Assembly: GCF_017348835.2 (NCBI RefSeq)
Contig: NZ_CP072315.1
Strand: one strand, 5' to 3'
Source: Escherichia coli
Lineage (GTDB): Bacteria; Pseudomonadota; Gammaproteobacteria; Enterobacterales; Enterobacteriaceae
DNA length: 64,000 nt
The notes beneath the pieces were generated by a model that searched no databases, was not told the DNA's origin, and saw only the letters and a list, made by a program, of their open reading frames with translations. Both the position numbers and the translations under genes were made by a program. Of the stretch, positions 1-19,185 are shown one piece after another. Numbering within the stretch: position 1 is the first letter of the stretch; each line of letters opens with the position of its first letter.

Positions 1-1362
1 GTTGAATCTTCTACAAATGCCTGTGTTGGCATGATCCCATGTTCTGGAGGAACATGCGAAACTGGGCCAAAGGAAGAGAACAACGATTTTGGAAAAGTTG
101 CGGCTTATTCAAACATGGTTCAGTACATGCAGGGCGAAGCCAAATGCGAAGACCCTAACGATGCCAATTCCTGTTCTGTCTTTGAAGGAAAACCTGAATG
201 GTGTGGTCGTTCAGTAGGCTTTGTAAATGGCCTGGCAAAGACGGACTGCTGCGAAGCACCGCAGGGAACCGCAGGAGCACTTGAAGGTATCATGCTTGCC
301 GGATCTATGATCAGAAACACTAACTGGACCAGAGTTAATGCTCAGCTAATAAAATGGACCGGCGGTGATACAGGTACATGGGCTTCTATGTCCAATGCGG
401 TCGGTGAGTGGACTGCATCAGCTGGTAAAACAGTAGGGCAAATGTGGAACAATGTCACGAGCTCCTTAACGAGCGTATATGAAAACGTCGCTGGTAATCT
501 AAGCAGGGCAGTTGGGTCTTCCGCAACTTCTGGAGGGGCAGGAGGTGCTGGCCAGTTGGCACAGGAAACAATGTCCAGCTTCGGTATAGGTCAGCTTAAG
601 CAGATGGCAATGAAGAAAGCCTACGAATTGCTACCAGATACAGTTCGAGACTTTGTCTTTAAGAACGTTGCTACTACCGGAGGAGAGGTTGTCTTCTCGG
701 CTGCGGTTCAAAACTTTATGCTTGCATTAAACGTGATCGGTTGGATTTATACAGCCTATCAGGTCACTAAAATGCTTTTAGAAATGTTGGTAGCATGCGA
801 CCAGAAAGAGATGGAAGCTTCTATTCATAAGAATCAAAAATCCTGTTTTACATTAGATACGGAACGATGCGTCAAATATCTGAATGTTGGTTTCACAAAG
901 AAATGCGTTAAAAAAGCAACAGACATGTGCTGTTATAATTCCATGTTGTCACGCGTTATTATGCAACAAGCTTATCCGCAATTAGGAATAGACCCTGTCG
1001 CCTCTAATTGCGTGGGGCTATCAATAAAGCAAATACAGCAACTGGATTTCGATAAAATTGATCTGACGGAGTGGATTAATGATGCAGTTCAGGTAGGAGA
1101 AGTTCCTGATCAATATTCAAAATTCTCCGAAGAATCAATTGTGGAAAACTTACCATTCCAGAATGAGAACTATCAACTTCCATCAGAACGTACCAAGGAA
1201 GCAATGGGCGGTGAAGAAAATATGATAAAGGCCAGACAAGAAAATGCTCAGGCTATAAAAGAGGAAAATGTAGATTGTAGCTATTTACCTCGACCGGCCA
1301 TATGTGAGGTAGGTTCAACTACGCTGGATCCGGTTACGGGCAAGCAGTTGCCGAAATATTGA
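1..1362 (+). CDS. Cysteine-rich conjugative transfer protein, TraN-like (C-terminal part; frame open to window start)
   Basis: No stop codon between position 1 and the track ORF at 31; many spaced Cys (CETG, TDCCE, CVKYL, KKCVKK, DMCCYN) as in TraN-type outer-membrane mating-pair proteins; family assignment from memory. Confidence 0.4.
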   Translation, partial: VESSTNACVGMIPCSGGTCETGPKEENNDFGKVAAYSNMVQYMQGEAKCEDPNDANSCSVFEGKPEWCGRSVGFVNGLAKTDCCEAPQGTAGALEGIMLAGSMIRNTNWTRVNAQLIKWTGGDTGTWASMSNAVGEWTASAGKTVGQMWNNVTSSLTSVYENVAGNLSRAVGSSATSGGAGGAGQLAQETMSSFGIGQLKQMAMKKAYELLPDTVRDFVFKNVATTGGEVVFSAAVQNFMLALNVIGWIYTAYQVTKMLLEMLVACDQKEMEASIHKNQKSCFTLDTERCVKYLNVGFTKKCVKKATDMCCYNSMLSRVIMQQAYPQLGIDPVASNCVGLSIKQIQQLDFDKIDLTEWINDAVQVGEVPDQYSKFSEESIVENLPFQNENYQLPSERTKEAMGGEENMIKARQENAQAIKEENVDCSYLPRPAICEVGSTTLDPVTGKQLPKY

Positions 1363-1390: not shown

Positions 1391-2263
1391 TTACTTGGCT
1401 TTCAATGTTTTTTCTGGGAAGCCTTTTTTACCGTATTCACCGGTAAAGAGGTAATAATCTTTTCCGTTGATGGAGGCTGCAACACCCCCTGGAGTTGTTG
1501 TATTTGGGCTATCAGAACGGAAAATGATACCCGAAAAATCAGCGCTTGTTTCGTTTCCTTTAAATGGGATGAACACATAACGAATTACAGCGTAATCACC
1601 AGCGGGAAGGTTTAGCTGAGGAATTTCGGTTCCTGTTGCGGGGCGAATCGCCTGAAAGCTGTACATTGAATCTGTAGGGAAAACATCAGCATCAGGCTTA
1701 GAGGGCAGATCACAGGTACTCCATTTATTGACGACTGCCATATCAATTTTACATGTGGCCAGAGCTGCTTTCTGTTTTTCAGGGTTGTATCCAAATGAGG
1801 CCTGAGTTGCTTTTGTATGCTCAAAAACATACTTAGCTCCTTCACGTACCAAACTTTCATCATTGTAAGGCAATTTTTTTGGATTGGGGACGAACACTAG
1901 GTATTGATTGACCTGGATGTATTCGGCGTCAGAAGAACTGTACAAAGAGCCGAGGCTCATGATCCCAAAACCTTTTAGACCGCCTGTTACGTAGCCCATC
2001 GAACTATTGATGAGATACTTAGAAAGAAAGTTGTCGGCATCCCCTCCAGGAGTAACCTCTTGCTCCTTAAAATTAACGTCGAAACCAGCAAACGAATAGG
2101 CATTCTTGGCGACAGAATCATTTGCTTTAGCATGCCAGTACTGGCCGTGACTGTACGCATTCAGAGCGGTGCCTGGCGTAGTGCCGGTGTCACCGGCACA
2201 ACCCGATAGGGAAAAACCAATGACGACAGAAGAGACCAGAGATACTAAACGTAAAAGTTTCAT
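1391..2263 (-). CDS. Lipoprotein of unknown function
   Basis: N-terminal signal peptide MKLLRLVSLVSSVVIGFSLSGC with lipobox LSGC; no recognisable catalytic motif. Confidence 0.6.
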   Translation of the reverse strand: MKLLRLVSLVSSVVIGFSLSGCAGDTGTTPGTALNAYSHGQYWHAKANDSVAKNAYSFAGFDVNFKEQEVTPGGDADNFLSKYLINSSMGYVTGGLKGFGIMSLGSLYSSSDAEYIQVNQYLVFVPNPKKLPYNDESLVREGAKYVFEHTKATQASFGYNPEKQKAALATCKIDMAVVNKWSTCDLPSKPDADVFPTDSMYSFQAIRPATGTEIPQLNLPAGDYAVIRYVFIPFKGNETSADFSGIIFRSDSPNTTTPGGVAASINGKDYYLFTGEYGKKGFPEKTLKAK

Positions 2264-2442
2264 TTAAAGCCCTTTTTGTAATGTCTTTTGGAGATGGAAC
2301 CATTATTCCATAGTCACGCGTTTCACAAACAACCTGATTGCATAAAAAAGGAAAAAAAGTGATTTCCAGTAGAACCAGCAGTACACAAGAAAAGCGCTTT
2401 TATAAAAATGTATAATTATTAAAACGAAGTAATGAGGTTGAA

Positions 2443-4227
2443 ATGGGTAAGCCAACAGAAGAGCAAAGACCTGTTATCGAGAATGCTAGCGCAAACAATA
2501 TGGTGATAGCAGCGCCTGGATCAGGCAAATCATTCACCATGATAGAAGCGGTTATATCGATTCTCAAAAAGTATCCATATGCAAGAATCGGGATGGTGAC
2601 CTTTACTCGCGCTGCAACAAACGCACTTGCAGCAAAGTTACAAAAGCGATTGAGCAAGAAGGATCTTGACCGGGTGCTGGTGGATACTTTTCACGGACTC
2701 GTTAAGAAGCAACTGGACATGATTCGCTGGCCGGGAAAGATGTTGATAGGGCCAGCACAGAGATCTGTCATTCACCGGGCTTTGAAAGAATCCGGTGTAA
2801 CGATGAAGTTTGCTGAAGCTGAATTCGTTATTGATGCTATCGGCAGAGAAATGGATACGGATGTGATTTCAGTTCGGCATAACAGACAACAGATCCATTT
2901 ATTTAATACCTATCAGGCGTTATGCCAGAAAGACCATGTGGCGGACCTCAATGCTCTTTCAAAATTTGTTGTCGGTCAAATGCATTCGGGAAAAATGCGC
3001 ACGTTAGATTTGACACATTTGATAGTAGACGAAGTTCAGGATACTGACTCTATACAATTCTCATGGATAGCATTGCATACAAGAGCTGGAGTCTATACGA
3101 GTATAGTTGGAGACGATGATCAGGCCATCTACTCCTTCAGATCCTCAGGAGGAGTCAAAATATTTCAACAGTTTGAAAAACACTTCAGACCTAACATATT
3201 TTACTTAAACACATGCTTTAGGTGTGAACCTGAAATTTTAGAGGTGGCCGGAGCACTGATAGGAAAGAATGTTTACCGTTATGCCAAAGAGTTACGCTCG
3301 GCAAAAAAGGGAGGAGGAAAGGTCACTTTTCGTTCATATGTAGATATGGAGGAACAGATACAGGGTATTTTAAGCCTTATAAATCAGGATCCACATGGAT
3401 GGGCAATTCTAAGCCGCAATAATGCTCACTTGGATGAGCTAGAAAGTTTGATCGAACAGCCAGTAATTCGTTACGGAGGTAAATCATTCTGGGATGAAAA
3501 AGAAACAAGCGATGTGTTAAGCCTTATGGCCTTTTTCCGACAATCAAATGATCCTCGCTTAATGAAGAGAGTATTGGCATTGTTTGGAGAACAGGAATCA
3601 GTTTTGGATGATGTGGCATTGAGTATGAGAGGAAGAAAAGTTACTTTTGGCGACCTTGCCATCCCGGAGGACAGTTCTCTCGAAACAAAAACATTACATT
3701 CAAACTTCGTGCGCTTTACCCAGGAAAGTACTGATAAAGTTGAGATAGCAAAACGTTTCGCCAACCTTACGAAATGGATGGAATCGTCGTCAATCAAGAT
3801 GAGGAGTAATAAAGGTACAGCAACCTTAACAAAAATTGCTTTAGACACTTGTAAACAGTGGGCAGAAAAGACTGGTTGGATGAATATGATCAATCGTGCT
3901 GCTGCAATGTCATTAGGCCCTAGGAAGAAGGACGAGGAATACAGCCCAGAGAAAGTAGTCCTATCAACCTTGCATGGTTCAAAGGGTCTTGAGTGGAATA
4001 AAGTAATAATAATGAGTTGTAATGCGGATCAGATACCAAGTAAAAGATCAGTTGGGGAGGAGGCAATAGAAGAAGAAAGACGTTTGCTTTATGTTGGATT
4101 TACGCGTGCAGAAAAGCAACTTTTTGTAATGTGGTATGGTGACCCTTCTTTCTTTTTAAGAGAATGCAGTGAAGAAAAGATAAAAGAAGCAGCTAATATT
4201 CGAATTTCTCCAGTTTATACAGAATAA
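2443..4227 (+). CDS. UvrD/Rep-type superfamily-1 DNA helicase
   Basis: Walker A AAPGSGKS, DEVQDTD (motif II), VGDDDQAIYSFR, C-terminal LHGSKGLEW and LLYVGFTRA. Confidence 0.85.
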   Translation: MGKPTEEQRPVIENASANNMVIAAPGSGKSFTMIEAVISILKKYPYARIGMVTFTRAATNALAAKLQKRLSKKDLDRVLVDTFHGLVKKQLDMIRWPGKMLIGPAQRSVIHRALKESGVTMKFAEAEFVIDAIGREMDTDVISVRHNRQQIHLFNTYQALCQKDHVADLNALSKFVVGQMHSGKMRTLDLTHLIVDEVQDTDSIQFSWIALHTRAGVYTSIVGDDDQAIYSFRSSGGVKIFQQFEKHFRPNIFYLNTCFRCEPEILEVAGALIGKNVYRYAKELRSAKKGGGKVTFRSYVDMEEQIQGILSLINQDPHGWAILSRNNAHLDELESLIEQPVIRYGGKSFWDEKETSDVLSLMAFFRQSNDPRLMKRVLALFGEQESVLDDVALSMRGRKVTFGDLAIPEDSSLETKTLHSNFVRFTQESTDKVEIAKRFANLTKWMESSSIKMRSNKGTATLTKIALDTCKQWAEKTGWMNMINRAAAMSLGPRKKDEEYSPEKVVLSTLHGSKGLEWNKVIIMSCNADQIPSKRSVGEEAIEEERRLLYVGFTRAEKQLFVMWYGDPSFFLRECSEEKIKEAANIRISPVYTE

Positions 4228-4621
4228 TTCGATATGGGCATTTACTTATGCTTAAAGCTATAGTATAAAAACAATGAGCTTAAATATCAGCTCCCAAATT
4301 TGAGTAACTTTGCTTAAAGTTACTTTCGCGTTAAGCGTTGATTTAGCCGTGAAAAGCGGCCAGCTTAAACAAGCTGTAAGACACCACCGGCAAAATGTCA
4401 CCTTTGTCGCTGGTGCACTTCCCATGCCTGAAAAAGGCAATCTGAATTTACCAAACCGTAACTAATTTAGCTCCTCCTGGAGCTATTTTTGTTGCGTACT
4501 TCTAATGCCAGATAGTATAAATCAGGCGGTTCATAGCTTACGGGAGATGAATGACAGGCTTTGCCTTCGTGTTGAAACAAAAAATTGTTTCTTCCTTCTT
4601 ACTATATATAGGTGACCCCAA

Positions 4622-5494
4622 ATGTCTAAAAATAAAGCTCGCAGTAAAGCCCTTCATCAAACCTTTAGTGAAATTATTCCAGAGATGGATAAGGCGCTAA
4701 ACAAACAGCTCTTAGAAGTTCTGATGAAATATACAGAACGTGATAATGAACTGATTGTTATTTTGAATGAGGACGGCCCAAATATCATTGAACTTAAGTC
4801 TCTTAAGCCTGTGTCTTTGTTGGCCGAAAAGCTTTCTGCTTATTCAAGCTATTATCATGTGGATGTTGTGGAGCTCGTGGTCAAGAAAATTGATTTCGAA
4901 GGAGCTTATAAGCTTCTTAAAGCTTCCCCAGATGTACCACTTTTTAAAAGCTTAACTGAACTGGATAAATATCTTGTTGAGGAGTTTGAAAAATACGGAT
5001 TAAATTCATTTCTTGACGTGGATAATCTGGATTACTCACTTGAAAAAGCCAGTGAACTCAAAAATGAGCAGTTAATAAATTGGGTTTCGGACATCATTTG
5101 CAAACGTGAAAAATTAACTTTACGTAAGCGTTTTGATGTCGCAGTAAAGGCCCACTACGAAAATGTAGAAAAAATGTATGATACCATTCGTCCGTTAATG
5201 AAAAAACTGGGTTTCCCAGAAGATCTCATGACGCACACCTTTAGTGAGTTAAGCGTTTTTGAAACTAAAGGATGGGACCATGCAATAAAATCGAAAATTG
5301 AGACTCTCGCTAAGCGTGAAACTCAATATTTAGATGATGCGGCTAAAGCAGAGAATCGACGTCTTGTAACAGAGAAGTTGGAGAACTCTTTAGCGATTGC
5401 ACCAACTAAACCAACAAGAAATTGGTTACATATTGCCGGAATTGCCTGTTTGGTAGTCTGCACGTTCATGTATGTAACTAATAAATTTATTTAA
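4622..5494 (+). CDS. Hypothetical protein, helical with C-terminal membrane anchor
   Basis: 290-aa ORF; hydrophobic C-terminus IAGIACLVVCTFMYV; upstream RBS-like stretch. Confidence 0.5.
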   Translation: MSKNKARSKALHQTFSEIIPEMDKALNKQLLEVLMKYTERDNELIVILNEDGPNIIELKSLKPVSLLAEKLSAYSSYYHVDVVELVVKKIDFEGAYKLLKASPDVPLFKSLTELDKYLVEEFEKYGLNSFLDVDNLDYSLEKASELKNEQLINWVSDIICKREKLTLRKRFDVAVKAHYENVEKMYDTIRPLMKKLGFPEDLMTHTFSELSVFETKGWDHAIKSKIETLAKRETQYLDDAAKAENRRLVTEKLENSLAIAPTKPTRNWLHIAGIACLVVCTFMYVTNKFI

Positions 5495-5551
5495 TCCTGT
5501 TAAGGGGGAACCCTAACGGGGCTTCTCTTTGAACAAATCGAGGAGCGGAAA

Positions 5552-5929
5552 ATGTCATATCTTGAATATATCAATGAAGTAAAAGTGTCCGGGATAGTTA
5601 TCAGTGCTGTGGAGAAAAAAATGACTGACCAGAGTATAGGTTTGTTAATAAAGCTCAAAAATAGGATGAAGACAGAAGTTGATGGTGAAATCACTGAGAG
5701 AGAATTTTCAGTTCAAATCAAGGTGTCGCCTGAAATGTATTCAACCTGTTTCACTGGTATAAATCAGGGTGATGAGTTGATGGTCTCCGGTTATATTGTT
5801 GTCGATACTATTATGATTGAAGGGAGAGAACATCCTCTTGACTACATGAGAGTGGTAGCAACAAGTAAGTTGGCTCACATACCTAAACCTCTAAAAGGTT
5901 TTGGACAAAGTAGCTTTAATCAGATCTGA
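5552..5929 (+). CDS. Hypothetical protein (125 aa)
   Basis: ORF with GGAG-type RBS upstream; no motif recognised. Confidence 0.45.
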   Translation: MSYLEYINEVKVSGIVISAVEKKMTDQSIGLLIKLKNRMKTEVDGEITEREFSVQIKVSPEMYSTCFTGINQGDELMVSGYIVVDTIMIEGREHPLDYMRVVATSKLAHIPKPLKGFGQSSFNQI

Positions 5930-5949
5930 CATTAAACCCACCCTAAAGG

Positions 5950-5980
5950 GGAGAAATCCCTTCATGGGATTTCTCCTTTT
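5950..5980 (+). terminator. Intergenic hairpin + U-tract (terminator/attenuator-like)
   Basis: GGAGAAATCCC-ttcat-GGGATTTCTCC then TTTT, immediately followed by GGAG and the ATG at 5990. Confidence 0.55.
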
Positions 5981-5989
5981 GGAGTCCCC

Positions 5990-6967
5990 ATGAAACAAAA
6001 ATTTAGGGCTACTGCAATAAGTAGTAATCAACTTAGTTTTTTTTCTATACTCGATATAGATGAAGATGAAATAACGCAAATAGTTGATTCACCCAAAGAG
6101 CATTTAAATGATGCTTACACGTCCGGATTAAACTTTAAATCAGAAGAAAGTAACATTTCTGAGATAAATTATGATTCTGAAAGGCGTGAAAATCACCTTT
6201 ATGAAAAATCCAAATTACTTAAAAATCAGATTTTGCATACAATTAATTTTGCAGCAGAAACAGATTATCTATATACGGTTGAAGAATATAACCCAGATTT
6301 GGGTGGTCTGGTAATAGAATGGACCCCTGAGGATGTGTATGTTGTTTTTCTATCCGCTATGGAAGAGTCTTTGGAAATCATTAAAGAACTAGTGTTGAGG
6401 AGAAAGTTATTCTTCAAAGATGACAATGGTAATATCACAGTGAATCCACTTTTAGAAGCTGAAACACGGTGGTATATGTCAAAATCATTTGAATACACTT
6501 GTTTATGTCATGGACTTGATGCATGTGAATTTAGAGCGGAATTAAAATCATGGCTCTATTATCATTCGCATCGTTCGATTAGTGAAAACACGAAATTAGC
6601 TGAATGCAGGAATGATGATGAAATCATTTTGCATGATTGCAATGACGATATGGGCTGGGACATCTTCTTTGATCAGGATTATTTAATGTCAGAAAAAAAA
6701 CTGGCTGTTAAATGGACTGACAGGGAAATTATGGATGTTTACATAAAAGCTTTTAAATCCACATTAGAGTTGTTTGACGAGCTTGTTTCATGTGATCTGT
6801 TAACTAAACGAAACGCTTTTGGCAAGTTAGAAATCAATCCAATATTCGAAAATCATTTTGAATGGATCATGTCTGAAGCTTTTGAAATAGTGGGAAATCA
6901 TCTTGGTTATAATGTGCCTCAAATCAGGAAACTGATGGCAACTATTTGCCAAATGAATCTCAAATAA
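5990..6967 (+). CDS. Hypothetical protein (325 aa)
   Basis: Long AT-rich ORF with RBS; no motif recognised. Confidence 0.5.
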   Translation: MKQKFRATAISSNQLSFFSILDIDEDEITQIVDSPKEHLNDAYTSGLNFKSEESNISEINYDSERRENHLYEKSKLLKNQILHTINFAAETDYLYTVEEYNPDLGGLVIEWTPEDVYVVFLSAMEESLEIIKELVLRRKLFFKDDNGNITVNPLLEAETRWYMSKSFEYTCLCHGLDACEFRAELKSWLYYHSHRSISENTKLAECRNDDEIILHDCNDDMGWDIFFDQDYLMSEKKLAVKWTDREIMDVYIKAFKSTLELFDELVSCDLLTKRNAFGKLEINPIFENHFEWIMSEAFEIVGNHLGYNVPQIRKLMATICQMNLK

Positions 6968-7024
6968 AATGCCACTGGCAAACATCTGCCAGAGGGCGGT
7001 GTTTGCATTTTACCGGAGTTAAAA

Positions 7025-8083
7025 ATGTCTAATGCCGCTATGAAGTTAAATGAAACATCTTCTGATGCTTATGAAAAATTAGAAGCTCTTCTTTCCCCGG
7101 ATGTTATAAAGTTAAAACATTATGTGGATAAAGGTGAGTATCTTTTAGTTCTAGCAAAGGACCTTTTTGGTATTCCAGAAATGGATCCAAAGATGGCTGT
7201 GCCTGTTTTCAAAACTAAAACCTCGTATCGAGCTCCGCTGAACAAAGACTACATACCAAATCCCCGAATACTTGAACAAGTGGTTAAACTGCTTATCAGT
7301 CCGGATATAGATTTAAGTGTGTGTCTTAAAGGTGAGTCCGGTTCTGGCAAGACTGAAATGGTAATGTACATTAGCCACATGATGAATTGGCCGCTGACAA
7401 TTAAGCAGATCAACAGCAATATTCGAGTTGATGAGCTTGAAGGTGAGCGCAGTCTTAATGGTGGTAATACAGGTTTTGTACACAGCGATTTGGTAACGGG
7501 ATTTCGTAATGGTCACCTCATTCTTCTGGATGAAGTGGACAAAATCGATCCTGATACGGCAGCAAAACTTCACATGCCCATTGAACGTAAGCCCTGGTCA
7601 CTCAGTGCTAATGGTGGTGAGGTTATAACTGCTAATGGCTACACGCGATTTATTGGTACTGCAAACACAAACATGAGTGGAGGCGCTCGCCGGTTCGTTT
7701 CTTCTCAACGTCAAGATGCAGCTTTTATAAAGCGGTTCTTGATAGTTGAAATGGAGAAGCCCGACAAAGTTGCTTTAACCAATGTGCTTACTAAACGATA
7801 TAGCTCTTTGCCTTTTCAGGTCATTGAGAAGTTCGTAAGAGTAGCGATTGCAGTAAATGACTCTGGTACAGAAGACAGTGTGATGGATATTCGTCAATTA
7901 GTAGCTTGGGTTGGCACGTCGATGACGTTAAAAACCTTTAGTCTTCTTGACACTTTCAAAATAGCTTTTGCTTCTGCTTTACCTTTACATGTGGTCGATC
8001 TTGTTCTTCAAGCTATAGATCTTTCTCTTGGCGAAGACAAGGATAAATCGCTGGAGTATTTCACAGCAAAAAAGTCGAGTTAG
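7025..8083 (+). CDS. AAA+ ATPase, MoxR/CobS-like
   Basis: Walker A GESGSGKT, Walker B HLILLDEVDK; size (~350 aa) matches CobS/MoxR-type ATPases. Confidence 0.75.
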   Translation: MSNAAMKLNETSSDAYEKLEALLSPDVIKLKHYVDKGEYLLVLAKDLFGIPEMDPKMAVPVFKTKTSYRAPLNKDYIPNPRILEQVVKLLISPDIDLSVCLKGESGSGKTEMVMYISHMMNWPLTIKQINSNIRVDELEGERSLNGGNTGFVHSDLVTGFRNGHLILLDEVDKIDPDTAAKLHMPIERKPWSLSANGGEVITANGYTRFIGTANTNMSGGARRFVSSQRQDAAFIKRFLIVEMEKPDKVALTNVLTKRYSSLPFQVIEKFVRVAIAVNDSGTEDSVMDIRQLVAWVGTSMTLKTFSLLDTFKIAFASALPLHVVDLVLQAIDLSLGEDKDKSLEYFTAKKSS

Positions 8084-8418
8084 ATGGGATTTGTTATGAA
8101 ACCTCTGATATTTGTATCTCAGAGTTATCCCATCTTGAATTTAGTGCGTTTTTAAGTACGGATGGTGCTGCTACCATTGCTATAGCAAAAAACGGAACTA
8201 ATTTTACTGGACTTATGCAACTGAATAACGACTATTCTTTATTGTTTTATCATGATGGTAAAATAAATATGGAAGGTCTGATTAAACAAATGGAATTAAA
8301 AGGTTATATGTATCAGGGAGCAATGGGCAATGATGATGTTGTTGCTGAGTTTCCCGGTATTCTTTTAATTTCACCAGAGAAGCTTTAATATCAACCCTAT
8401 CGGGAAATCTTTCCCGTT

Positions 8419-8441
8419 GGGGAGGGTTTCCCCTTTTTTTT
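8419..8441 (+). terminator. Intergenic hairpin + U-tract directly upstream of an RBS
   Basis: GGGGA-gggtt-TCCCC followed by an 8-T run, then GGAG and ATG at 8452; an additional CGGGAAA/TTTCCCG hairpin at 8401-8416. Confidence 0.5.
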
Positions 8442-8451
8442 GGAGAAACCC

Positions 8452-9579
8452 ATGACTTTAAATACTTCAATGCTTAACAAAGTATCTGCAAAACAAATCT
8501 CTGAGAATTTTGCAAAATCATATCCAGATTTACTGGAAGGTGCAGTTATAACAAAAATTGAAATAAGTGGCTGTCAAGGATCGCGTCGAACCGATAAAAT
8601 CGATTTGTCTTATGATGGAGATGATATTACGGATCAAAAAAGCGTATCTAAAAGCGAAGTACGCTGGATTGACATAAAAGCCCTTAGCTTCAAAAGTACG
8701 ATTACCAGCAGAATATCAACTCTTTGCTCACGCTTGTGCATCCGCTATAGCAATATGTGGATTTTACCAGTATCCAGTATGGAAGAGTTTCTGGAAGGGG
8801 CCCAAGAGATTGAACGAGAGTTTCAGGCAGGTATTCAAAACGTTGTAGACAATTATGAGATGCATATTGAGGCTGAAAAAAATAGAAGCCCAAGAATGTC
8901 TTCTTTGATTGATCAGTTGAAATTAACTAAAGATGATTTCATAAAATCCTTTAGATTTAATATTGCTCACTTTATTCCTTTTACGCCTATTAGCGTTGAA
9001 GGTGATGAAACCCAGGACTACTATCAGGAACAATTGATAACAGATCTGGCAGAAGAAGCAATGAAGGTTTATGAAAAAATTAGCAAAAATAACAATTTGC
9101 GCTCAAGTACTATTGACCGACTGAAGCAAATGCAAAATAAGATCATTAGCTTCATGTTTATACATAAAGAGGCGGCAGTACTTGCAGAAGCTATAAAACA
9201 CATAATGAATAATTTACCTAAAGGTGCCATTTCTGAACCTCGCGACGTTGCGGTGTTACAGCAGTGGTTTTATTTCATGAGTGATGCTTCAATGTTAAAG
9301 CGTATTATTTCAGGAGAGCAAAAGGTTACTGACTGGTTGGAATCTATTACCAGATCATTTAATCAAAGCTCACAAACAGAACCGAACGCGCTACAGAACA
9401 CAGGTATTGAAGCTATTTTAGATTCAACAAATGTGTTCCAGGTTGAACCTGTCGTAGAGAACGATATAAATAACAGCACGTTTTCAAACACTGATCCTGT
9501 AGCTGAACCTGAGAAATCAGTTTCGCAACAGGAAGACAATGTTGAAAATGGTTTTGATATCGAGCTCAAAGGCTGGTAA
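8452..9579 (+). CDS. Hypothetical protein (375 aa)
   Basis: Track ORF starts at TTG 8440; ATG at 8452 has a GGAG RBS. No motif recognised. Confidence 0.5.
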   Translation: MTLNTSMLNKVSAKQISENFAKSYPDLLEGAVITKIEISGCQGSRRTDKIDLSYDGDDITDQKSVSKSEVRWIDIKALSFKSTITSRISTLCSRLCIRYSNMWILPVSSMEEFLEGAQEIEREFQAGIQNVVDNYEMHIEAEKNRSPRMSSLIDQLKLTKDDFIKSFRFNIAHFIPFTPISVEGDETQDYYQEQLITDLAEEAMKVYEKISKNNNLRSSTIDRLKQMQNKIISFMFIHKEAAVLAEAIKHIMNNLPKGAISEPRDVAVLQQWFYFMSDASMLKRIISGEQKVTDWLESITRSFNQSSQTEPNALQNTGIEAILDSTNVFQVEPVVENDINNSTFSNTDPVAEPEKSVSQQEDNVENGFDIELKGW

Positions 9580-9599
9580 CTGTTTGCTTTATTAAAAAC

Positions 9600-9641
9600 C
9601 CCAGATGGGTACTTCACCATCTGGGTGAGTACCCCTTTTTT
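9600..9641 (+). terminator. Intergenic hairpin + U-tract
   Basis: CCCAGATGG-(8 nt)-CCATCTGGG stem, then ACCCC and TTTTTT, 16 nt before the ATG at 9657. Confidence 0.55.
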
Positions 9642-9656
9642 ATAAAGAGGTATTCT

Positions 9657-11669
9657 ATGAAATTAGATCTTAAATCATCACCGCGCCATATTAAGCGTTT
9701 ACAGAATATAGCAAAAGTCATTAGCGGCTTAGGCGATGTAAGAGTTGTAATAGACGACAATACCAAAGGACCGTATTTTGATCCTGTAAATAAAGTTTGT
9801 GTTTTACCAAACGGCGATTATAGCGATGATGACTTTGTCAGTCTGATTGAAGGTTTTACCTGTCATGAAGCTGGTCATGGTCGCTATACCGACAGCGAGG
9901 TTTACAGTGACGCCTTTAATAGTGTTCTCAAGTCATCTGAAGGGTTTACACGCTTCGATGACGGAATGAATGCAGAGTTTGAGAGCCTCGCTGAGAAACG
10001 TAAAGCTTATAGCAGGGCAAAACGTCTTACCGGGCTTATAAATCTGTTCGATGATGTACAGATGGAAGAGAAGGTTGGTAACGATTATCCGGATGCAAAG
10101 CGGCGGCTTGCAGCCACTTACGCACTGATGGTTAAAGCCGGAAGGATGACTCCTGATATATCTTCTCGTCCGGAAAATCCTGTCCTATTTATTGAGTGGT
10201 ATCTGCTTAACTCATTGCGAGTAAAAGTCCTTCAGCAGGCAGGTCACAAAGAAACACTCGATCCGTTTTTTGACTATGCCCAAAAGATACTTTCTCCAGT
10301 AATTTCTGATGTTGAGGAAATTTTTCATGATGCTCTTGGTTGTGAAAATACTCAGGGCTGTGAATCCCTTGCTCGTAAGACCCTGGCTCTTTTAGAGAGA
10401 CTGCGGGATGAGGCAAGGGAACAACAGCAGCAGACAGAGCAGGAGGAGCAGGAGGCATATGATGAATCCGAGACCGATACCGATACCGATACCGAATCAG
10501 AAGATAAATCGCTTGAGTCGACTGATAGTCGTGAGGATGATTCTGAGGACGATAGTGAAGGTCAGGCAGATACTTCCGATAACTCTGATCTTGCTCAAGA
10601 GGGATGTTCTGAGCCTTCAGAACTTGCTGAAGATAACGAGGGAAATAATGAACCCACCGGTGGCAATCCCACAGGTGATAACATTATTGAAGACGATACT
10701 GATGCGATTAACCCTTCCGAGAGTGAATCAGATGAAGCCAGTTCGACTAACGTTGAAGATGAAAGTAACTTTTCATCGGCTCAATGGGAGATACTGGCAG
10801 ATTTGTTGGATGCCTTTCTTGGCAGTGATGAGGATAGCGAAGATTATCACGATGCTTTGGCTAAAGAGATTGAAGGTATTGCATCAAAAGTATCCGATGA
10901 CGTGAAAGCCGAATTCGGTGCTTCTGAATGGGATATCCCTGATCTCCTTATCGATTTGAATGTTTACAATGAGGCTTTGTCTCTGAGTCATTCAATCGGT
11001 AGCGACTTGTCTGTTTTACAGCAGGTTAAAATGCGTGGCCGAAACAAAACTCATGAGCGTGGAATTACCTTCGATGGAAATCGATTAATTCTGTCACCAA
11101 TGGGAGTTCGTGATGTCTTCAGAGCTCAAAGCGAATCTAAAAATAGAGGGCATGTTGGCCTCGTATTAGTTCGTGATATTTCAGCGTCAATGGCTAATGA
11201 TGAAAGATATATTCATGCCATTAAGTCAGATCTTGCTTTATCGATGGCCGCTGAAAGTTTGTCAAAAATGCATGTCTCCAATATAGTCTTTCCCTTCAAG
11301 GAAAGTGAATTTGAGATTATCAAAACGTTTGATCAAAGCGTTGAGGAATCTCTATCGAAATTCACTCTTGGATGTAAGGGTTATTATACCCCTACGGGAT
11401 CGGCTTTAATGGCAGCTGTTGATCTGTTACTTGACAGCCAATTCGATAGGAAAATAATTTTTCTTATAACTGATGGTTATCCGAATAAATCGGAATTTAC
11501 TATCGGCGAAGTTATGGAAAAGGCTAAATGTAATGGAATAGAAATCGTTGGTGTTGGTATTAAGACTGATGAAATAATTGGTTTTGAAACGGACACTTTC
11601 GTAACAGTTGATGATACTTCTTTATTGTCTATTGAAGTCAGTAAGCTAGTTCATCAAATACTTTCTTAA
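9657..11669 (+). CDS. vWA-domain protein, CobT-like, with acidic linker and N-terminal HExxH motif
   Basis: C-terminal vWA with MIDAS DISAS and ITDG; central highly acidic D/E/S/T-rich segment; HEAGH at residues 70-74. Architecture resembles CobT, the usual partner of CobS-like ATPases. Confidence 0.7.
   Translation: MKLDLKSSPRHIKRLQNIAKVISGLGDVRVVIDDNTKGPYFDPVNKVCVLPNGDYSDDDFVSLIEGFTCHEAGHGRYTDSEVYSDAFNSVLKSSEGFTRFDDGMNAEFESLAEKRKAYSRAKRLTGLINLFDDVQMEEKVGNDYPDAKRRLAATYALMVKAGRMTPDISSRPENPVLFIEWYLLNSLRVKVLQQAGHKETLDPFFDYAQKILSPVISDVEEIFHDALGCENTQGCESLARKTLALLERLRDEAREQQQQTEQEEQEAYDESETDTDTDTESEDKSLESTDSREDDSEDDSEGQADTSDNSDLAQEGCSEPSELAEDNEGNNEPTGGNPTGDNIIEDDTDAINPSESESDEASSTNVEDESNFSSAQWEILADLLDAFLGSDEDSEDYHDALAKEIEGIASKVSDDVKAEFGASEWDIPDLLIDLNVYNEALSLSHSIGSDLSVLQQVKMRGRNKTHERGITFDGNRLILSPMGVRDVFRAQSESKNRGHVGLVLVRDISASMANDERYIHAIKSDLALSMAAESLSKMHVSNIVFPFKESEFEIIKTFDQSVEESLSKFTLGCKGYYTPTGSALMAAVDLLLDSQFDRKIIFLITDGYPNKSEFTIGEVMEKAKCNGIEIVGVGIKTDEIIGFETDTFVTVDDTSLLSIEVSKLVHQILS
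10473..10493 (+). repeat. In-frame hexanucleotide tandem repeat (ACCGAT) x3.5 encoding TDTDTDT
   Basis: accgataccgataccgatacc read directly in the acidic linker of the vWA gene. Confidence 0.6.
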
Positions 11670-11685
11670 TAAACTCTACCCAATC

Positions 11686-11712
11686 GGGGCAAAAGGCCCC
11701 GGTGGGTCTTTT
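11686..11712 (+). terminator. Intergenic hairpin + U-tract
   Basis: GGGGC-aaaag-GCCCC then GGTGGGTCTTTTT, downstream of the 11669 stop. Confidence 0.5.
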
Positions 11713-11740
11713 TGCTCCATGAAGGAATAAGGAGCAAAAT

Positions 11741-11962
11741 ATGACTCAGATAAAAACTTACCGTGTAGAACATGAAAAAGTCGGTGCGATGCATAAAGTC
11801 CGTATTTTCGGACGTGTTGGTGAAGTTATAAGCAATGATAGCCCTCAGGAAAGAATCTTCCGCGAAGTCACTATAGCGGAGGGTAATAGCCAGCAGGCTG
11901 CGTTACTTGTAGATAACTACATACAGTGTCTTGAGAATAATGGCTTCACGACTGAAGCATAA
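11741..11962 (+). CDS. Hypothetical small protein (73 aa)
   Basis: ORF with AAGGAG-like RBS (aataaggagcaaaatATG) and its own downstream terminator. Confidence 0.45.
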   Translation: MTQIKTYRVEHEKVGAMHKVRIFGRVGEVISNDSPQERIFREVTIAEGNSQQAALLVDNYIQCLENNGFTTEA

Positions 11963-11967
11963 ATGTT

Positions 11968-11991
11968 GAGGGCCCCCGGGCCCTCTTTCTT
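11968..11991 (+). terminator. Intrinsic terminator
   Basis: GAGGGCCC-cc-GGGCCCTC perfect stem followed by TTTCTT. Confidence 0.55.
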
Positions 11992-12075
11992 AAATTCTGC
12001 GTTGTGGGTTTCTCCCTGTCTTCTGCACCGCAGAAGGCATTGAGAAACTCACAATGCCAGATAAGAGAGATCATC

Positions 12076-13308
12076 ATGACTTATGCATCCCCGGCTCTTC
12101 GTCGTAATCCACAGGAAGTATCTGAACACTTTATTAAACTCGTTCATGCTCGAATTGCTGAAGTGTCTGGCTGGAAGTATATATTCGAAAGAATACCTGC
12201 TTTCAAAGACGCTTGTGCAAAAGCCCCGAGCCAGGTTCCTTGCCCGTTTACTGGCGCAGGGAAATCGAAGTTTCGTTTCCGACAAAAAGACCTTTATACC
12301 GGATGTGCGATCCATAATGACTTTCCGGTAAATGAGTTTTGCGACGGAATTGATGTTCTGGCGAAATATTATGAATTAAGTAAAACGCAGACTTGCAAAA
12401 AGATTCTCTCAGATTTTTTCGGGATGGATCTGCATGCTCCGTTAACTGACGCCGACATTGAAAATGAACGACGCTATAAATCAGCAGTTCGTGCCACAGA
12501 AACTCTTGACCGAGAGGAAGTGGCAAAGCGAATGCGAAAACTTGATGTGATGTATCACTATACCGGTGAAATCAAGCCTAATACTCCTGTTGCTTTGTAC
12601 CTCCGTAATCGTGGGATCTCCCGCTTACTGAGTCACTTACCAAAGGATTTAGGCTTTAATAACCGGATCTACTATTGGGATAAAGATAAGCAGAAATCGA
12701 TTATCTATCCGGGAATGATTGCGATCTATCGTGACACCCGAGGTCGGCCTCTGACTATTCATAGAACATACGTAGACAAAAATGGTGATAAGGCACCTGT
12801 AGAAAATCCAAAGCTGATGATGAAGCCTCCTGCCGATATGACAGGTGGCTCAATTCAGTTGTTTGACCCTCACTATGATTCAGGTAGTTCGACCTGGACA
12901 CTGGGAGTGGCTGAAGGGATCGAGAACGCGCTTTCTGTTGTAGAAGCGACTTCAACACCATGCTGGGCAGCCAGCTCCGCATGGTGCCTTGAAAACGTTA
13001 CTGTTCCTGATTTTTTACTGCCTCCGCCGGATGTAAAATCTATAAACTTTTATATCTGGGCGGATAAGGATATTGCTAACTCACAAGGCACTCGTGCCGG
13101 TATTGAAGCTGCTCAGCGACTTCAAAGCCGCATGGTTGAGTTTTTGGCTAAACGATATCCCGCATCAAAGCTGACAATTGAAGTCTTCGAACCAGCACAA
13201 GATATTCCTGATGGGAAAAAGGGTATCGACTGGAACGATGTTCTCCAGTTAACAGGGCAGGATGGATTCCCGATTCACTGGGCTCCTGAATGTCTTAATC
13301 AGCTGTAA
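12076..13308 (+). CDS. Toprim-domain DNA primase-like protein
   Basis: Toprim signature (conserved Glu in LGVAEGIENALS, DxD in YIWADKD), N-terminal Cys cluster (VPCPFTG, CAIHNDF) suggesting a zinc-binding region. ATG at 12076 has an AAGAGAGA RBS; track start 12004 is GTG without RBS. Confidence 0.55.
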   Translation: MTYASPALRRNPQEVSEHFIKLVHARIAEVSGWKYIFERIPAFKDACAKAPSQVPCPFTGAGKSKFRFRQKDLYTGCAIHNDFPVNEFCDGIDVLAKYYELSKTQTCKKILSDFFGMDLHAPLTDADIENERRYKSAVRATETLDREEVAKRMRKLDVMYHYTGEIKPNTPVALYLRNRGISRLLSHLPKDLGFNNRIYYWDKDKQKSIIYPGMIAIYRDTRGRPLTIHRTYVDKNGDKAPVENPKLMMKPPADMTGGSIQLFDPHYDSGSSTWTLGVAEGIENALSVVEATSTPCWAASSAWCLENVTVPDFLLPPPDVKSINFYIWADKDIANSQGTRAGIEAAQRLQSRMVEFLAKRYPASKLTIEVFEPAQDIPDGKKGIDWNDVLQLTGQDGFPIHWAPECLNQL

Positions 13309-17118: not shown

Positions 17119-18057
17119 ATGTTTAAAGAATCTGACCACGTGGAATTTGTTAGTGCCTTTCTTTATCAAAATTTAGGCCTTAATGTTTCCGCTGACGATA
17201 TAACCGTTCAATTATCTGATACTTCGTTCGACAAAGTAACCTTTGATTACGATGTAGATATCGATAATTTAAATTGTATGTTGGATCTCTACATATCTGA
17301 GCTAATAAAGCACAACGCATCTTACTCCGATTCTATTCTTTTGAAACAAAAAATAATTTATTTTCTTGGAGTATTTAAGAATTTCGGATTTTTTACGTTT
17401 GATATTCGCGGATATAGTAATACTTTAAGCCCAGTTAAAGTTATTGATATTGTTTCAATGATTATTAATGACTGTGAAGAGTTATCTAAAGCTAATTCTT
17501 CTACTGATGCTATAAGAAATCTTTATCTCGATAAAATGAAGGTGGATGGGAAAGTGTTAGTTGCGAAATTTGCACTTAAACAGTTTTTTCATTCCGACTT
17601 TGGTGACTTTATCTCATTTGTCGAGAAAAGAATTACAGATTGTCTTAATGAAACTTTAAGGATTATCAAAGCTGTTGAACATGGCTTTGTACGTGTAGGG
17701 CAGCATAAGATTAATCGCCGTATTAATGATGACTTAAAGTTATGCATTGATTTCAATACTGATGATTATCCGGCAAATATGCCAGATATATATATTAAGT
17801 TTAACGATACATTTGATGGGAACGGGGCGTTATATTGTGACAATGATGCCCTCATATCCCTCTATACCGATGTTGCTTCAATTATCAATGTGCCGGTGAT
17901 GATGGAAGTAAGATTGATCAATAAAAGAGGGCGTGTTGTCTGTGATTCTTCGCATTCAACTTACGTATCTCTCGAAAGTAATGACCGATACAGAGTAACT
18001 GATCGCACATTACTAATAACTGAAGCTTTTGACGATTTTCGTAACGCGTCTCAATGA
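17119..18057 (+). CDS. Hypothetical protein, array member 4 (clear paralogue of member 5)
   Basis: Blocks shared with the next gene: KMKVDGKVLVAKFALKQFFHSDFGDFISFVEKRIT vs LMQVDGQVMIARFALQQFWDTHFIGLITFVSESIT, and HSTYVSLESNDRYRVTDR vs HTVYVSELTGGRIKIHDR. Confidence 0.6.
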   Translation: MFKESDHVEFVSAFLYQNLGLNVSADDITVQLSDTSFDKVTFDYDVDIDNLNCMLDLYISELIKHNASYSDSILLKQKIIYFLGVFKNFGFFTFDIRGYSNTLSPVKVIDIVSMIINDCEELSKANSSTDAIRNLYLDKMKVDGKVLVAKFALKQFFHSDFGDFISFVEKRITDCLNETLRIIKAVEHGFVRVGQHKINRRINDDLKLCIDFNTDDYPANMPDIYIKFNDTFDGNGALYCDNDALISLYTDVASIINVPVMMEVRLINKRGRVVCDSSHSTYVSLESNDRYRVTDRTLLITEAFDDFRNASQ

Positions 18058-18176
18058 TCCTTTTGCTTCAGTCCAAAAAAGTAACTTTGGTTGGCTGAAG
18101 ACACTTGTCTATGACAATGTAAAATCTGTCGCTGGCATCTTCTTTTAGCTTAACCAAATTTTTATCTAACCCAGTG

Positions 18177-18191
18177 GGGAAGTCGCTTCCC
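18177..18191 (+). other. Hairpin in 5' region of array gene 5 (copy of the gene-4 upstream element)
   Basis: GGGAAG-tcg-CTTCCC; followed by the same GAGGTAGTGTA-N-ATG leader seen upstream of gene 4. Confidence 0.5.
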
Positions 18192-18228
18192 TTCTGGGGC
18201 ACTTCCTCTCAAATTCGAGGTAGTGTAT

Positions 18229-19185
18229 ATGACACATTCATCTGATGATAAAAACTATGTCCGAGCAGTTCTGAGTTATCTTGGCATAGATTTTGATGAG
18301 GCGGATATAGTATTAAGTGTTTGCCATTGTCAAAGTGACGAGCTTTCTTTTACCTGTAATATCAAAGCTATTGAACTCAAGAATGTTGTTGATTTATATG
18401 TCGATAGTATCTCTGAGAATGAAATAGAAGCTTTAAACAGAGAATCTTTAAAATCGCGACTCTGTTACTTTCTTGAGGTGTTTGACGCAGTCTCTGGTCA
18501 GTACCTTGAAATTTCAGGAAAACACTTTGCAACTAGTCGTTTTGAATATGATGATGTTTGTAGTGAAGTTCTTAGCATGTCTAATGATGTTTCTCAGTCG
18601 AAAGGTTATGACCGGGATGAATATAACAGACTGATGCAGGTTGATGGTCAGGTTATGATTGCCCGTTTTGCTTTGCAACAGTTCTGGGATACTCATTTTA
18701 TTGGACTAATAACATTTGTATCTGAGTCTATAACATCGAGCCTCTATAAAGCTTATGAAACTTTTAGTGATATTAGTTTGGCTTGCTATAAACTGAGTGA
18801 ATATTCTTATTCACGCTCTATCAACAGTGAATTGACCCTTAATATTTCACTTAAAGAAAATGACTTCTGTGAGGACCTATCTGATTGCTATATGGAAGAT
18901 GAGGCTTTACCTTCTGGTAGGGTAATTTCTCGACGCAACAATGACTCCATAATAAGTATTTATGAGAGCTATGCTGCGGCTTCTTATATTCCGATGATTG
19001 CATCTTTGGAAGTCGTTGATGAATACGGCGAAGTGGTTACTGACCTCTGCCATACCGTTTATGTTTCAGAGTTAACCGGTGGGCGGATTAAAATCCACGA
19101 CCGTAATGACTTAGTATCTGAAGTTTTCGATAACCTAAGAAATTTAAATCTTGCAGTTGGAGATTCAGTTTCACAAGCTGCTTGA
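18229..19185 (+). CDS. Hypothetical protein, array member 5
   Basis: Track start 18223 is GTG; ATG at 18229 has a GAGGT RBS. Paralogue of 17119-18057. Confidence 0.6.
   Translation: MTHSSDDKNYVRAVLSYLGIDFDEADIVLSVCHCQSDELSFTCNIKAIELKNVVDLYVDSISENEIEALNRESLKSRLCYFLEVFDAVSGQYLEISGKHFATSRFEYDDVCSEVLSMSNDVSQSKGYDRDEYNRLMQVDGQVMIARFALQQFWDTHFIGLITFVSESITSSLYKAYETFSDISLACYKLSEYSYSRSINSELTLNISLKENDFCEDLSDCYMEDEALPSGRVISRRNNDSIISIYESYAAASYIPMIASLEVVDEYGEVVTDLCHTVYVSELTGGRIKIHDRNDLVSEVFDNLRNLNLAVGDSVSQAA

Follow-up and report, generated by a model that had tools for sequence, protein, structure and literature searches.

The 64,000-nucleotide stretch of Escherichia coli DNA considered here (contig NZ_CP072315.1 of assembly GCF_017348835.2; 'the window' in what follows) is, judging from its nucleotide identity to sequenced plasmids, IncHI2 plasmid backbone, and carries at positions 2443-6967 a UvrD-like helicase gene, a long structured spacer and three further genes. 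The helicase gene is, from its sequence, near-certainly trhI, which encodes the backbone SF1A (UvrD/Rep/PcrA-type) helicase of the IncHI plasmids and lies just beyond trhN at the edge of the transfer region Tra2. The best overall explanation of the locus, which we favour by a modest measure, combines this identity with a DNA-processing module for conjugation and with a spacer that separates two transcription units. The elements concerned are the following (aa, amino acids):

2443..4227, + strand: trhI, SF1A UvrD/Rep/PcrA-type helicase of 594 aa (R0003 in the IncHI1 plasmid R27), assigned by Pfam, motifs and RefSeq identity
4228-4621: spacer of 394 bp between trhI and the gene of the 290-aa protein
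4622..5494, + strand: 290-aa tail-anchored membrane protein (R27 R0002), C-terminal transmembrane segment in 10 of 10 orthologues
5552..5929, + strand: 125-aa protein modelled as an SSB/PriB-like OB fold (R27 R0001), from AlphaFold2 and Foldseek
5990..6967, + strand: 325-aa acidic protein (R27 R0210), disordered N-terminus followed by a tandem domain

As a gene find the locus is already known, since trhI has been named and the co-regulation of the downstream cluster, whose function the literature gives as unknown, has been published. The elements for which we could not find a description are the SSB/PriB fold of R0001, the tandem domains of R0210 and the unit of RNA and promoter in the spacer.

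The trhI locus of the IncHI plasmids

Positions 2300-7000 of the window share 100% nucleotide identity with hundreds of IncHI2 plasmids from E. coli, Salmonella, Enterobacter and Klebsiella; they match 1397 plasmid records, 1107 of them with at least 80% query cover. The identical plasmids are typed as IncHI2A with a MOBH relaxase and MPF_F, and their genes rsp, trhF, trhW, trhU and trhN, upstream of trhI, form the distal part of Tra2. RefSeq names the identical protein, which is encoded in more than 1000 plasmids, 'IncHI-type conjugal transfer helicase TrhI', and sequence identity at this level excludes a mapping error behind the assignment.

The protein is a plasmid-encoded SF1 helicase of the UvrD type, as an earlier note on this DNA had proposed from the translation, and the domain search which that note recommended returned no accessory domain: beyond UvrD-helicase (E = 9e-33, 114.5 bits against a gathering cut-off of 23) and UvrD_C (4e-32, 112.4 bits, cut-off 25.6) there are only AAA_19 and UvrD_C_2. 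TrhI aligns to residues 12-614 of E. coli UvrD and comprises the full four-subdomain core, with motifs I (GSGKS), II (DEVQD), III (GDDDQAIYSFR), V (TLHGSKGLEW) and VI (VGFTRA) intact in the translation and in the UvrD alignment. It shares this core and these motifs with E. coli UvrD and Rep and with Gram-positive PcrA, the SF1A 3' to 5' helicases, but unlike them it is plasmid-borne and lacks the C-terminal extension of UvrD; its NCBIfam scores (Rep 179.9, UvrD 175 and PcrA 158.5 bits) all fall below the respective equivalog cut-offs of 951, 1144 and 911 bits, so that TrhI is not UvrD, Rep or PcrA proper. Nor does this free-standing protein, whose AAA_30 match is below threshold, belong to the relaxase-fused SF1B helicases of the F TraI or TrwC type. 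The earlier note had held its view of the locus to depend on the helicase not being a conserved replicative or transfer helicase of established function. A named and conserved helicase of the transfer region is indeed what was found; no demonstrated biochemical or genetic function for TrhI came up in the literature searched, where trhI is no more than listed, the primary R27 papers lying outside that search.

The description of the helicase as solitary did not survive a comparison of ten loci, namely IncHI2 (the window, L001), IncHI1 (L002, with R27 as L131/L132), the Klebsiella IncHI1B type (L003), pKP04VIM (L004) and six more contigs (L006, L007, L008, L134, L135 and L136) that were reached through distant homologues of the 325-aa protein. 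In all ten the helicase gene is part of a fixed syntenic block of more than ten genes next to the mating-pair genes, in the order traU, traN, a lipoprotein gene on the opposite strand, the helicase gene, a spacer of 330-425 bp, and genes for proteins of about 290, about 125 and about 275-330 aa, followed by the downstream array of AAA_5, (a small gene), DUF3150, VWA-like, a small gene and DUF7146+Toprim_3. This order is kept despite identity falling to 19-22% in the 325-aa protein and to about 49% in TrhI; hundreds of IncHI2 plasmids encode TrhI with 100% identity, and the figure is 82% for IncHI1 (R27) and about 49% for IncHI3/5. The co-occurrence of the helicase with its three neighbours, a check that had been proposed, is complete in the ten-locus sample; the three neighbours themselves are present as described, but they are only the first members of a longer co-directional array. 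In R27, trhI (R0003) occupies the same place after trhN (R0005) and the divergent lipoprotein gene (R0004), and R0002, R0001 and R0210 correspond to the genes of the 290-, 125- and 325-aa proteins, followed by R0209 (AAA+), R0207 (DUF3150), R0206 (VWA) and R0204 (Toprim). The three genes are thus the first three of a nine-gene, operon-like cluster that runs from R0002 to R0204. The neighbours on either side are:

31..1362, + strand: 3' end of trhN, encoding a TraN-type mating-pair stabilisation protein, distal end of Tra2 (NCBIfam NF011459 TraN, 1051 bits, model positions 620-1062; trhN in identical plasmids)
1391..2263, - strand: lipoprotein gene, divergent from trhI (R27 R0004), with signal peptide and lipobox LSGC, in the same position in 10 of 10 loci
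7025..13308, + strand: rest of the co-regulated cluster (R27 R0209-R0204), from Pfam and NCBIfam, in the same order in 10 of 10 loci, made up of the next six entries
7025-8083, + strand: CobS/MoxR-like AAA_5 protein
8215-8388, + strand: small open reading frame (ORF)
8440-9579, + strand: DUF3150 protein
9657-11669, + strand: CobT-like VWA protein
11741-11962, + strand: small ORF
12076-13308, + strand: DUF7146 + Toprim_3 primase-like protein, with which the co-induced cluster ends

Distant TrhI-like helicases (28-29% identity) are encoded in a Xanthomonas MOBH plasmid (L129) and a Ralstonia plasmid (L130), beside ssb, AAA and DUF3150 genes. The AAA_5/DUF3150/VWA triad of the window (7025-11669) recurs, whole or in part, beside ssb and the TrhI-like helicase gene in both of these unrelated plasmids; a search for functional literature on DUF3150 yielded nothing useful.

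The spacer between trhI and the downstream operon

The 394 bp that separate trhI from the operon hold a candidate structured RNA framed by two predicted promoters:

4241..4269, + strand: P1, sigma-70-like promoter candidate immediately downstream of the trhI stop codon, of the form TTTACT-17 nt-TATAAA; seven divergent lineages share TTTAC and TATA without change
4276..4494, + strand: candidate conserved structured non-coding RNA of about 220 nt, ends approximate, from minimum free energy (MFE) z-score, covariance model and compensatory pairs
4276-4293, 4302-4325, 4327-4337, 4346-4360, 4361-4376, 4382-4415 and 4425-4439, + strand: hairpins of the spacer RNA, eight when the terminator is included
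4447..4462, + strand: conserved block TTTACCAAACCGTAAC shortly before the terminator, without base pairs in either the MFE or the centroid fold
4468..4493, + strand: predicted intrinsic terminator, stem 4468-4485 and T-run, from a terminator scan and a covarying stem
4493..4531, + strand: P2, predicted promoter with a weak -35 element TTGCGT, hyper-conserved spacer TAATGCCAG (4503-4511), good -10 element TATAAA (4516-4521) and start region TCAGGCGG
4529..4566, + strand: leader hairpin HP-A (6-bp stem 4529-4534/4547-4552, 12-nt loop), then GAC and hairpin HP-B (4556-4566)

The earlier note had remarked on a structured spacer with hairpins at about 4303 and 4471, and both are there: the former is a perfect 9-bp inverted repeat (4303-4311/4316-4324), the latter a terminator-like 7-bp G+C stem (4468-4485) followed by TTTTTGTTG. 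The plus strand of 4276-4494 folds with an MFE of -69.8 kcal/mol against -45.0 +/- 4.2 for shuffled sequences (z = -5.9), and none of 200 shuffles folds as well; the minus strand is also structured (z = -3.8). At 83% identity to IncHI1 (trhI 74%, gene of the 290-aa protein 70%), the spacer is over its full length as conserved as the flanking coding DNA or more so.

Spacer alignments were made of seven and then of ten lineages. The covariance model R1 was built from a MAFFT seed alignment of six sequences, in which the four named helices are 96.6% paired and 7 of 29 pairs are compensatory. The model finds the element on the plus strand in all lineages; in the three outside the seed it matches at the orthologous place and on the plus strand only, with 47 bits in L008, 41 in L135 and 27 in L004. 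A model-guided alignment of eight sequences (A10) raises the compensatory pairs to 19 of 29, with 93% of cells paired, while sliding the partner by 1-3 columns leaves 2-5 of them and none of 500 shuffles reaches the observed values; since A10 is fitted to the model, the seed-only figures are the conservative ones. Conserved G-U pairs in the spacer RNA and in the leader argue for an RNA read from the plus strand rather than for a DNA palindrome or a product of the opposite strand. The model detects no further convincing copy of the element elsewhere in the window or across 100 kb of R27, Rfam has no match in 4228-4621 at E <= 1, and a literature search for small RNAs of IncHI plasmids found no paper. 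A small protein encoded in the spacer was ruled out, as neither a 51-aa ORF (4310-4465) nor a 36-aa ORF over P2 is conserved.

The unpaired block TTTACCAAACCGTAAC, with the consensus TTTNCC(C)AAATCGYAAC across lineages, is a possible candidate for a seed or a protein-binding site. A search of the window and of 100 kb of R27 for a complementary target found none, and unrestricted duplex folding was uninformative. The hairpins at 4346-4360 and 4425-4439 on the plus strand (GCCGUGAAAAGCGGC and UGCCUGAAAAAGGCA) each have a 5-bp stem and a GAAAA pentaloop, the loops being kept only in the IncHI1/IncHI2-like clade; the hairpins resemble lambda boxB. On the minus strand, R1 also matches window positions 4459-4606, across terminator, P2 and leader, with 30 bits (E ~3e-5), whereas other lineages reach at most 15 bits; the match is probably an artefact of hairpin-rich sequence.

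Of the two promoters, P1 has the consensus TTTAC(T/A)-17-TATAAA and overlaps a promoter-scan match at 4235-4264, and may on these grounds act as a promoter. P2 probably drives the downstream operon R0002-R0204 as its regulated promoter: its block TTCTAATGCCAG-A-AGTATAAATCAGGCGGTT (4500-4531) is the most conserved part of the spacer in the ten lineages. The leader hairpin HP-A that follows is 100% paired in eight distinct sequences, with 3 of 6 pairs compensatory and G-U pairs included, against 27-62% pairing and no compensatory pair in slid controls; compensatory changes in HP-B were read by eye. A good Shine-Dalgarno sequence of the gene of the 290-aa protein lies downstream of the leader hairpins. 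Upstream of P2, a G+C-rich stem-loop and a T-run between differently expressed genes have the features of an intrinsic terminator, and termination is predicted there.

Several attempts to find relatives of the P2 sequence came to nothing. Neither the window nor the 100 kb of R27 that span Tra1/Tra2 holds a second copy, and the idea that P2 is a promoter element shared by the tra operons was therefore rejected; a scan of genome contigs with the degenerate pattern TAATGCCAGN{9,13}TCAGGCG listed matches that are all due to chance, none with the extended motif. The 15-mer TAATGCCAGAAAAGT, the IncHI3/IncHI5 spelling of the P2 block, does occur in mobI next to oriT (7925-7939 on the minus strand of the R27 contig L133; about 1686 in the IncHI2 contig L137), but codes there for GNARKV, a conserved peptide, and IncHI3 lacks it; it is therefore judged a coding coincidence. 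Finally, GGCGGTTCATAG was considered as an RfaH ops site and dropped, as it differs from the ops sequence, GGCGGTAGnnTG, at essential positions.

Published array data from R27 bear directly on the organisation of the spacer. Gibert et al. (2020, PMC7366339) describe R0204-R0002 as a thermoregulated nine-gene cluster of unknown function, comprising the R27 counterparts of the three genes downstream of trhI and of the AAA+, DUF3150, VWA and Toprim genes, all of them orthologues of the IncHI2 genes in the window; to this the present analysis adds the R0001 fold, the R0210 repeat and the regulatory spacer. The cluster is induced 5-23x at 25 compared with 37 C, the 25 C side being the conjugation-permissive one, is almost silent at 37 C, and rises 19-61x in a derepressed htdA mutant at 25 C (PMC7366339). 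By contrast trhI is flat (560 vs 494 units at 25 vs 37 C) and rises 8.7x in the htdA mutant, and the R0004 lipoprotein gene gives 9779 units at 25 C and 5433 at 37 C (PMC7366339). A flat trhI beside a thermoregulated cluster implies that the spacer divides two transcription units, trhI on one side and the downstream genes on the other, just as a terminator and a second promoter predict. The operon signal in the htdA mutant moreover exceeds that of trhI, which shows a promoter downstream of trhI, a result that fits P1 and P2 equally.

Other ways to read the spacer are, taken together, rather unlikely. It might only be a 3' stabiliser or terminator of the trhI messenger, as it starts 14 nt after the stop codon, but the TTTAC-17-TATAAA promoter candidate ahead of it is invariant and the structure continues for 200 nt beyond the needs of a terminator. 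It might act as DNA, in the manner of a single-strand initiation signal for a primosome or primase, which would suit both its position among genes for a helicase, an SSB/PriB-like and a primase-like protein and the folding of its minus strand; several of the conserved G-U pairs would however become A-C mismatches on the other strand, the model hits orthologues on the plus strand only, and the last stem is followed by a T-run. Or it might be an antiterminated leader in which the P2 block works as RNA, as the all-or-none regulation of the operon and the two boxB-like GAAAA hairpins of the IncHI1/2 clade would allow, but against it the loops are not kept outside this one clade, and the operon signal above that of trhI in the htdA mutant shows a promoter downstream of trhI, be it P1 or P2. 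The spacer may hold a trans-acting small RNA or an attenuator or antitermination leader, or may be a purely insulating element. Terminator-ended plasmid RNAs such as FinP of the F-like plasmids are likewise small structured transcripts, with a promoter of their own and an intrinsic terminator, beside conjugation-regulated genes, and the antitermination RNAs of lambda (nut) and HK022 (put) likewise place hairpins directly downstream of a promoter; the spacer RNA differs from all of these in that it has no antisense partner gene, Rfam match or found target, and boxB-like loops in one clade only. Our tentative proposal, possible but short of probable, is that the spacer constitutes an undescribed IncHI-wide regulatory RNA unit, its transcript having a promoter of its own and at least four covarying helices, that gates the operon, and that the operon and TrhI together form a strand-processing kit which offsets a MOBH relaxase without a helicase.

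Proteins of the co-induced cluster

The three genes directly downstream of the spacer had been described as unknown, one encoding a tail-anchored, one a small and one a 325-aa protein, and this characterisation holds: none of the three window proteins has a family match in Pfam, NCBIfam, PHROGs or PADLOC, and their families are small and confined to IncHI-type elements. The 290-aa protein, whose homologues occur only in such elements, is hydrophobic in just one segment, residues 267-290 at the very C-terminus, and ten lineages keep this segment; a comparison with the sequences in the Protein Data Bank (PDB) gave noise only.

The 125-aa protein is, according to its structural model, an SSB/PriB-like OB-fold protein, and a putative single-stranded DNA binder. 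The AlphaFold2 model (pLDDT 83) has the topology b1-b2-b3-a-b4-b5 of a classical OB fold, and its best Foldseek matches are bacterial, mitochondrial and apicoplast single-stranded DNA-binding proteins (SSBs) together with PriB of E. coli and Klebsiella (E ~5e-6, probability 1.0, TM-score 0.6-0.78). At the level of sequence, members of the family have weak Pfam matches to OB and SSB models (SSB E = 0.026 at best), the window protein itself has neither a Pfam SSB match nor any significant sequence match, and one family member is already named 'primosomal replication protein N' in JGI. The OB fold is common to bacterial SSB, PriB and the 125-aa protein, but the acidic C-terminal tip of bacterial SSB is replaced by a conserved basic and aromatic tail, PKPxKGFGxSSF, which may serve as a docking motif.

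The 325-aa protein is acidic (isoelectric point (pI) 4.7) and disordered over residues 1-73, beyond which it contains two tandem copies of an alpha/beta domain of about 100 aa (32% identity, E = 3e-11; pLDDT 80-94). The domain has no convincing relative in structure or sequence, and the profile of the protein retrieves just 26 cluster representatives among 1.84 billion proteins. At the far end of the cluster, 7.8 kb downstream, the Toprim protein (12076-13308) combines DUF7146 with Toprim_3, which makes it primase-like, and lacks an ATPase domain. Tassinari et al. (PMC4853401) report that in R27 a 6.4-kb deletion of R0199-R0205, which includes the Toprim gene R0204, was not obtainable despite repeated attempts, and this hints at a function that is essential, or toxic when unbalanced.

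Further downstream in the window, two adjacent plus-strand genes (17119-18057 and 18223-19185) encode paralogues of about 315 aa with 27% identity over 309 residues (E = 3e-37); the pair (17119-19185) sits in a run of five consecutive ORFs of about 290-320 aa without a family match.

A possible DNA-processing module in conjugation and its alternatives

Rolling-circle replicons are unwound by SF1A helicases, in the case of PcrA together with Rep or relaxase proteins and in E. coli by UvrD; conjugation of ICEBs1 relies on PcrA and HelP, and rolling-circle plasmid replication in E. coli is UvrD-dependent. In these systems the nick is made by a relaxase that has no helicase domain, unwinding falls to an SF1A helicase, and a small accessory or single-stranded DNA-binding protein helps; the helicase belongs to the host, whereas TrhI is encoded by the plasmid, and the 125-aa protein has an SSB/PriB-like fold in its model. 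The R27 relaxase has a TraI_2 domain only and no ATPase or helicase domain, and in MOBH relaxases in general TraI_2_C takes the place of the helicase or primase domains found in other relaxases (PMC6736028). Something other than the IncHI relaxase must therefore unwind the nicked plasmid.

From gene neighbourhood and co-regulation, it is quite possible, without being probable, that trhI and the downstream genes act as a module for processing plasmid DNA in conjugation. TrhI would unwind the nicked plasmid in the 3' to 5' direction, in the way that PcrA or UvrD act on rolling-circle replicons. The displaced strand would be coated by the 125-aa SSB/PriB-like protein, or else this protein would bring in a partner by way of its conserved tail; synthesis of the complementary strand would be primed by the Toprim protein; and the 290-aa tail-anchored protein would hold the machinery to the membrane close to the type IV secretion system. 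The terminator would insulate the constitutive trhI from the operon, which would be driven from P2 under the control of temperature and of the TrhR/TrhY-HtdA circuit. A plasmid-encoded UvrD-type helicase next to mating-pair genes, followed by conjugation-induced SSB/PriB-like and primase-like proteins, fits such a module.

A number of observations weigh against it. A 2003 abstract by Lawley et al. is said to list 11 essential mating-pair formation (Mpf) genes along with trhO, trhZ and htdA, and not trhI. The tra genes are set in bold in Table S3 of the array study and trhI is not (PMC7366339); the 32 genes needed for conjugation of the MOBH plasmid Rts1 include no helicase, and other MOBH systems seem to manage without one of this kind, enteric plasmids with a TrhI match being essentially those of the IncHI groups. 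In at least one sequenced plasmid, NZ_MG014720.1, a 323-kb E. coli plasmid (hits H2/H26), trhI is split by the insertion sequence (IS) IS903B, so that trhI is dispensable for maintenance, and according to Tassinari et al. (PMC4853401) R27 without R0206-R0210 is stably maintained with little loss of stability. Beyond the fold assignments, moreover, the roles given to the proteins derive from neighbourhood and co-regulation, and P1, P2 and the RNA ends are predictions. Other plasmid records carry IS1, IS2 or IS3-family insertions within 2300-7000 (H1, H3 and H4); all these insertions are natural knock-outs.

Three other accounts of the locus have to be weighed against a function in DNA transfer. 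UvrD and Rep are accessory replicative helicases, and UvrD helps to remove Tus. By analogy TrhI could serve the maintenance of a very large plasmid rather than its transfer, as an accessory replication and repair helicase that clears protein blocks, dismantles RecA filaments or displaces the plasmid's Tus-like protein, with the downstream genes forming a module for vegetative replication and recombination. This is improbable, although Rep and UvrD are the best NCBIfam scores of TrhI, a Tus-like terminus-binding protein is encoded in the same co-directional array, trhI of R27 is expressed equally at 25 and 37 C, unlike the tra operons, and the AAA/DUF3150/ssb neighbourhood recurs in a Ralstonia plasmid which PLSDB types as non-mobilizable, though with MPF_T genes. 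Both the stability of R27 after loss of R0206-R0210 (PMC4853401) and the IS903B-broken trhI speak for dispensability; the downstream cluster is nearly silent at 37 C while the plasmid still replicates, and follows the HtdA conjugation circuit; and every lineage has the locus in its fixed place beside traU/traN. Co-induction with conjugation would also suit an establishment module, in which the operon, and possibly TrhI, acted in the recipient on the incoming single strand, by its protection, priming or by countering SOS and restriction, as the leading-region genes ssb, psiB and ardA of other plasmids do. The combination of an SSB-like with a primase-like Toprim protein resembles leading-region functions, and an acidic 325-aa protein and a hairpin-rich spacer would be at home there. 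The locus is nevertheless not in the leading region: in R27 some 70-105 kb separate it from the oriT region, which is next to mobI and trhR. With 5-11 bp the hairpins are short and lack the long promoter-mimicking fold of single-stranded DNA promoters, the array signal comes from donor cultures, and profile searches found no anti-defence family match. A role in establishment is on these grounds quite improbable.

Plasmids often carry defence genes, and the earlier note had listed defence, beside replication and transfer, among the possible tasks of a plasmid-borne UvrD-like helicase. On that view the helicase would drive an anti-phage system, one of Gabija type or a novel one built on a helicase with the three unknown proteins as partners, and PADLOC models for GajB (up to 3e-42) and for the DRT-associated helicase RTasHel (6e-40) do match it. 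Gabija pairs GajA, an ATPase-Toprim protein, with the UvrD-like helicase GajB, and the GajB hidden Markov models match the TrhI core; yet with 143 bits this match is weaker than those to Rep (180), UvrD (175) and a phage helicase family (237 bits), and probably reflects the shared SF1 core. In agreement with the earlier note, which had seen no Gabija-like Toprim/ATPase partner nearby, none of the 15 neighbouring proteins has a PADLOC match to GajA or to any other defence component, and the sole Toprim protein in the vicinity is the distant one without an ATPase domain. The gene belongs to a vertically conserved backbone with fixed synteny across IncHI1/2/3/5, not to a variable island, and its would-be partners are co-regulated with conjugation, so that a defence function finds no support and is very improbable.

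The helicase itself, an annotated backbone gene, adds nothing new to the biology of the IncHI plasmids; what changes is the view of its neighbours. Multidrug resistance, including mcr-1 and the resistance of typhoid strains, has major carriers in the IncHI1 and IncHI2 plasmids, whose transfer is gated by temperature. Among the nine genes that are co-induced with conjugation, one can now be assigned an SSB/PriB-type fold (the 125-aa protein, as modelled) and one is primase-like (the Toprim protein), and the conserved element of RNA and promoter in front of this block may be the site at which temperature and HtdA/TrhRY exert their control. Should the module prove dispensable, the locus would be conserved cargo; should it prove necessary for transfer or establishment, it would fill a gap in the account of unwinding and re-priming in MOBH systems and would offer a plasmid-specific target against the spread of these plasmids.

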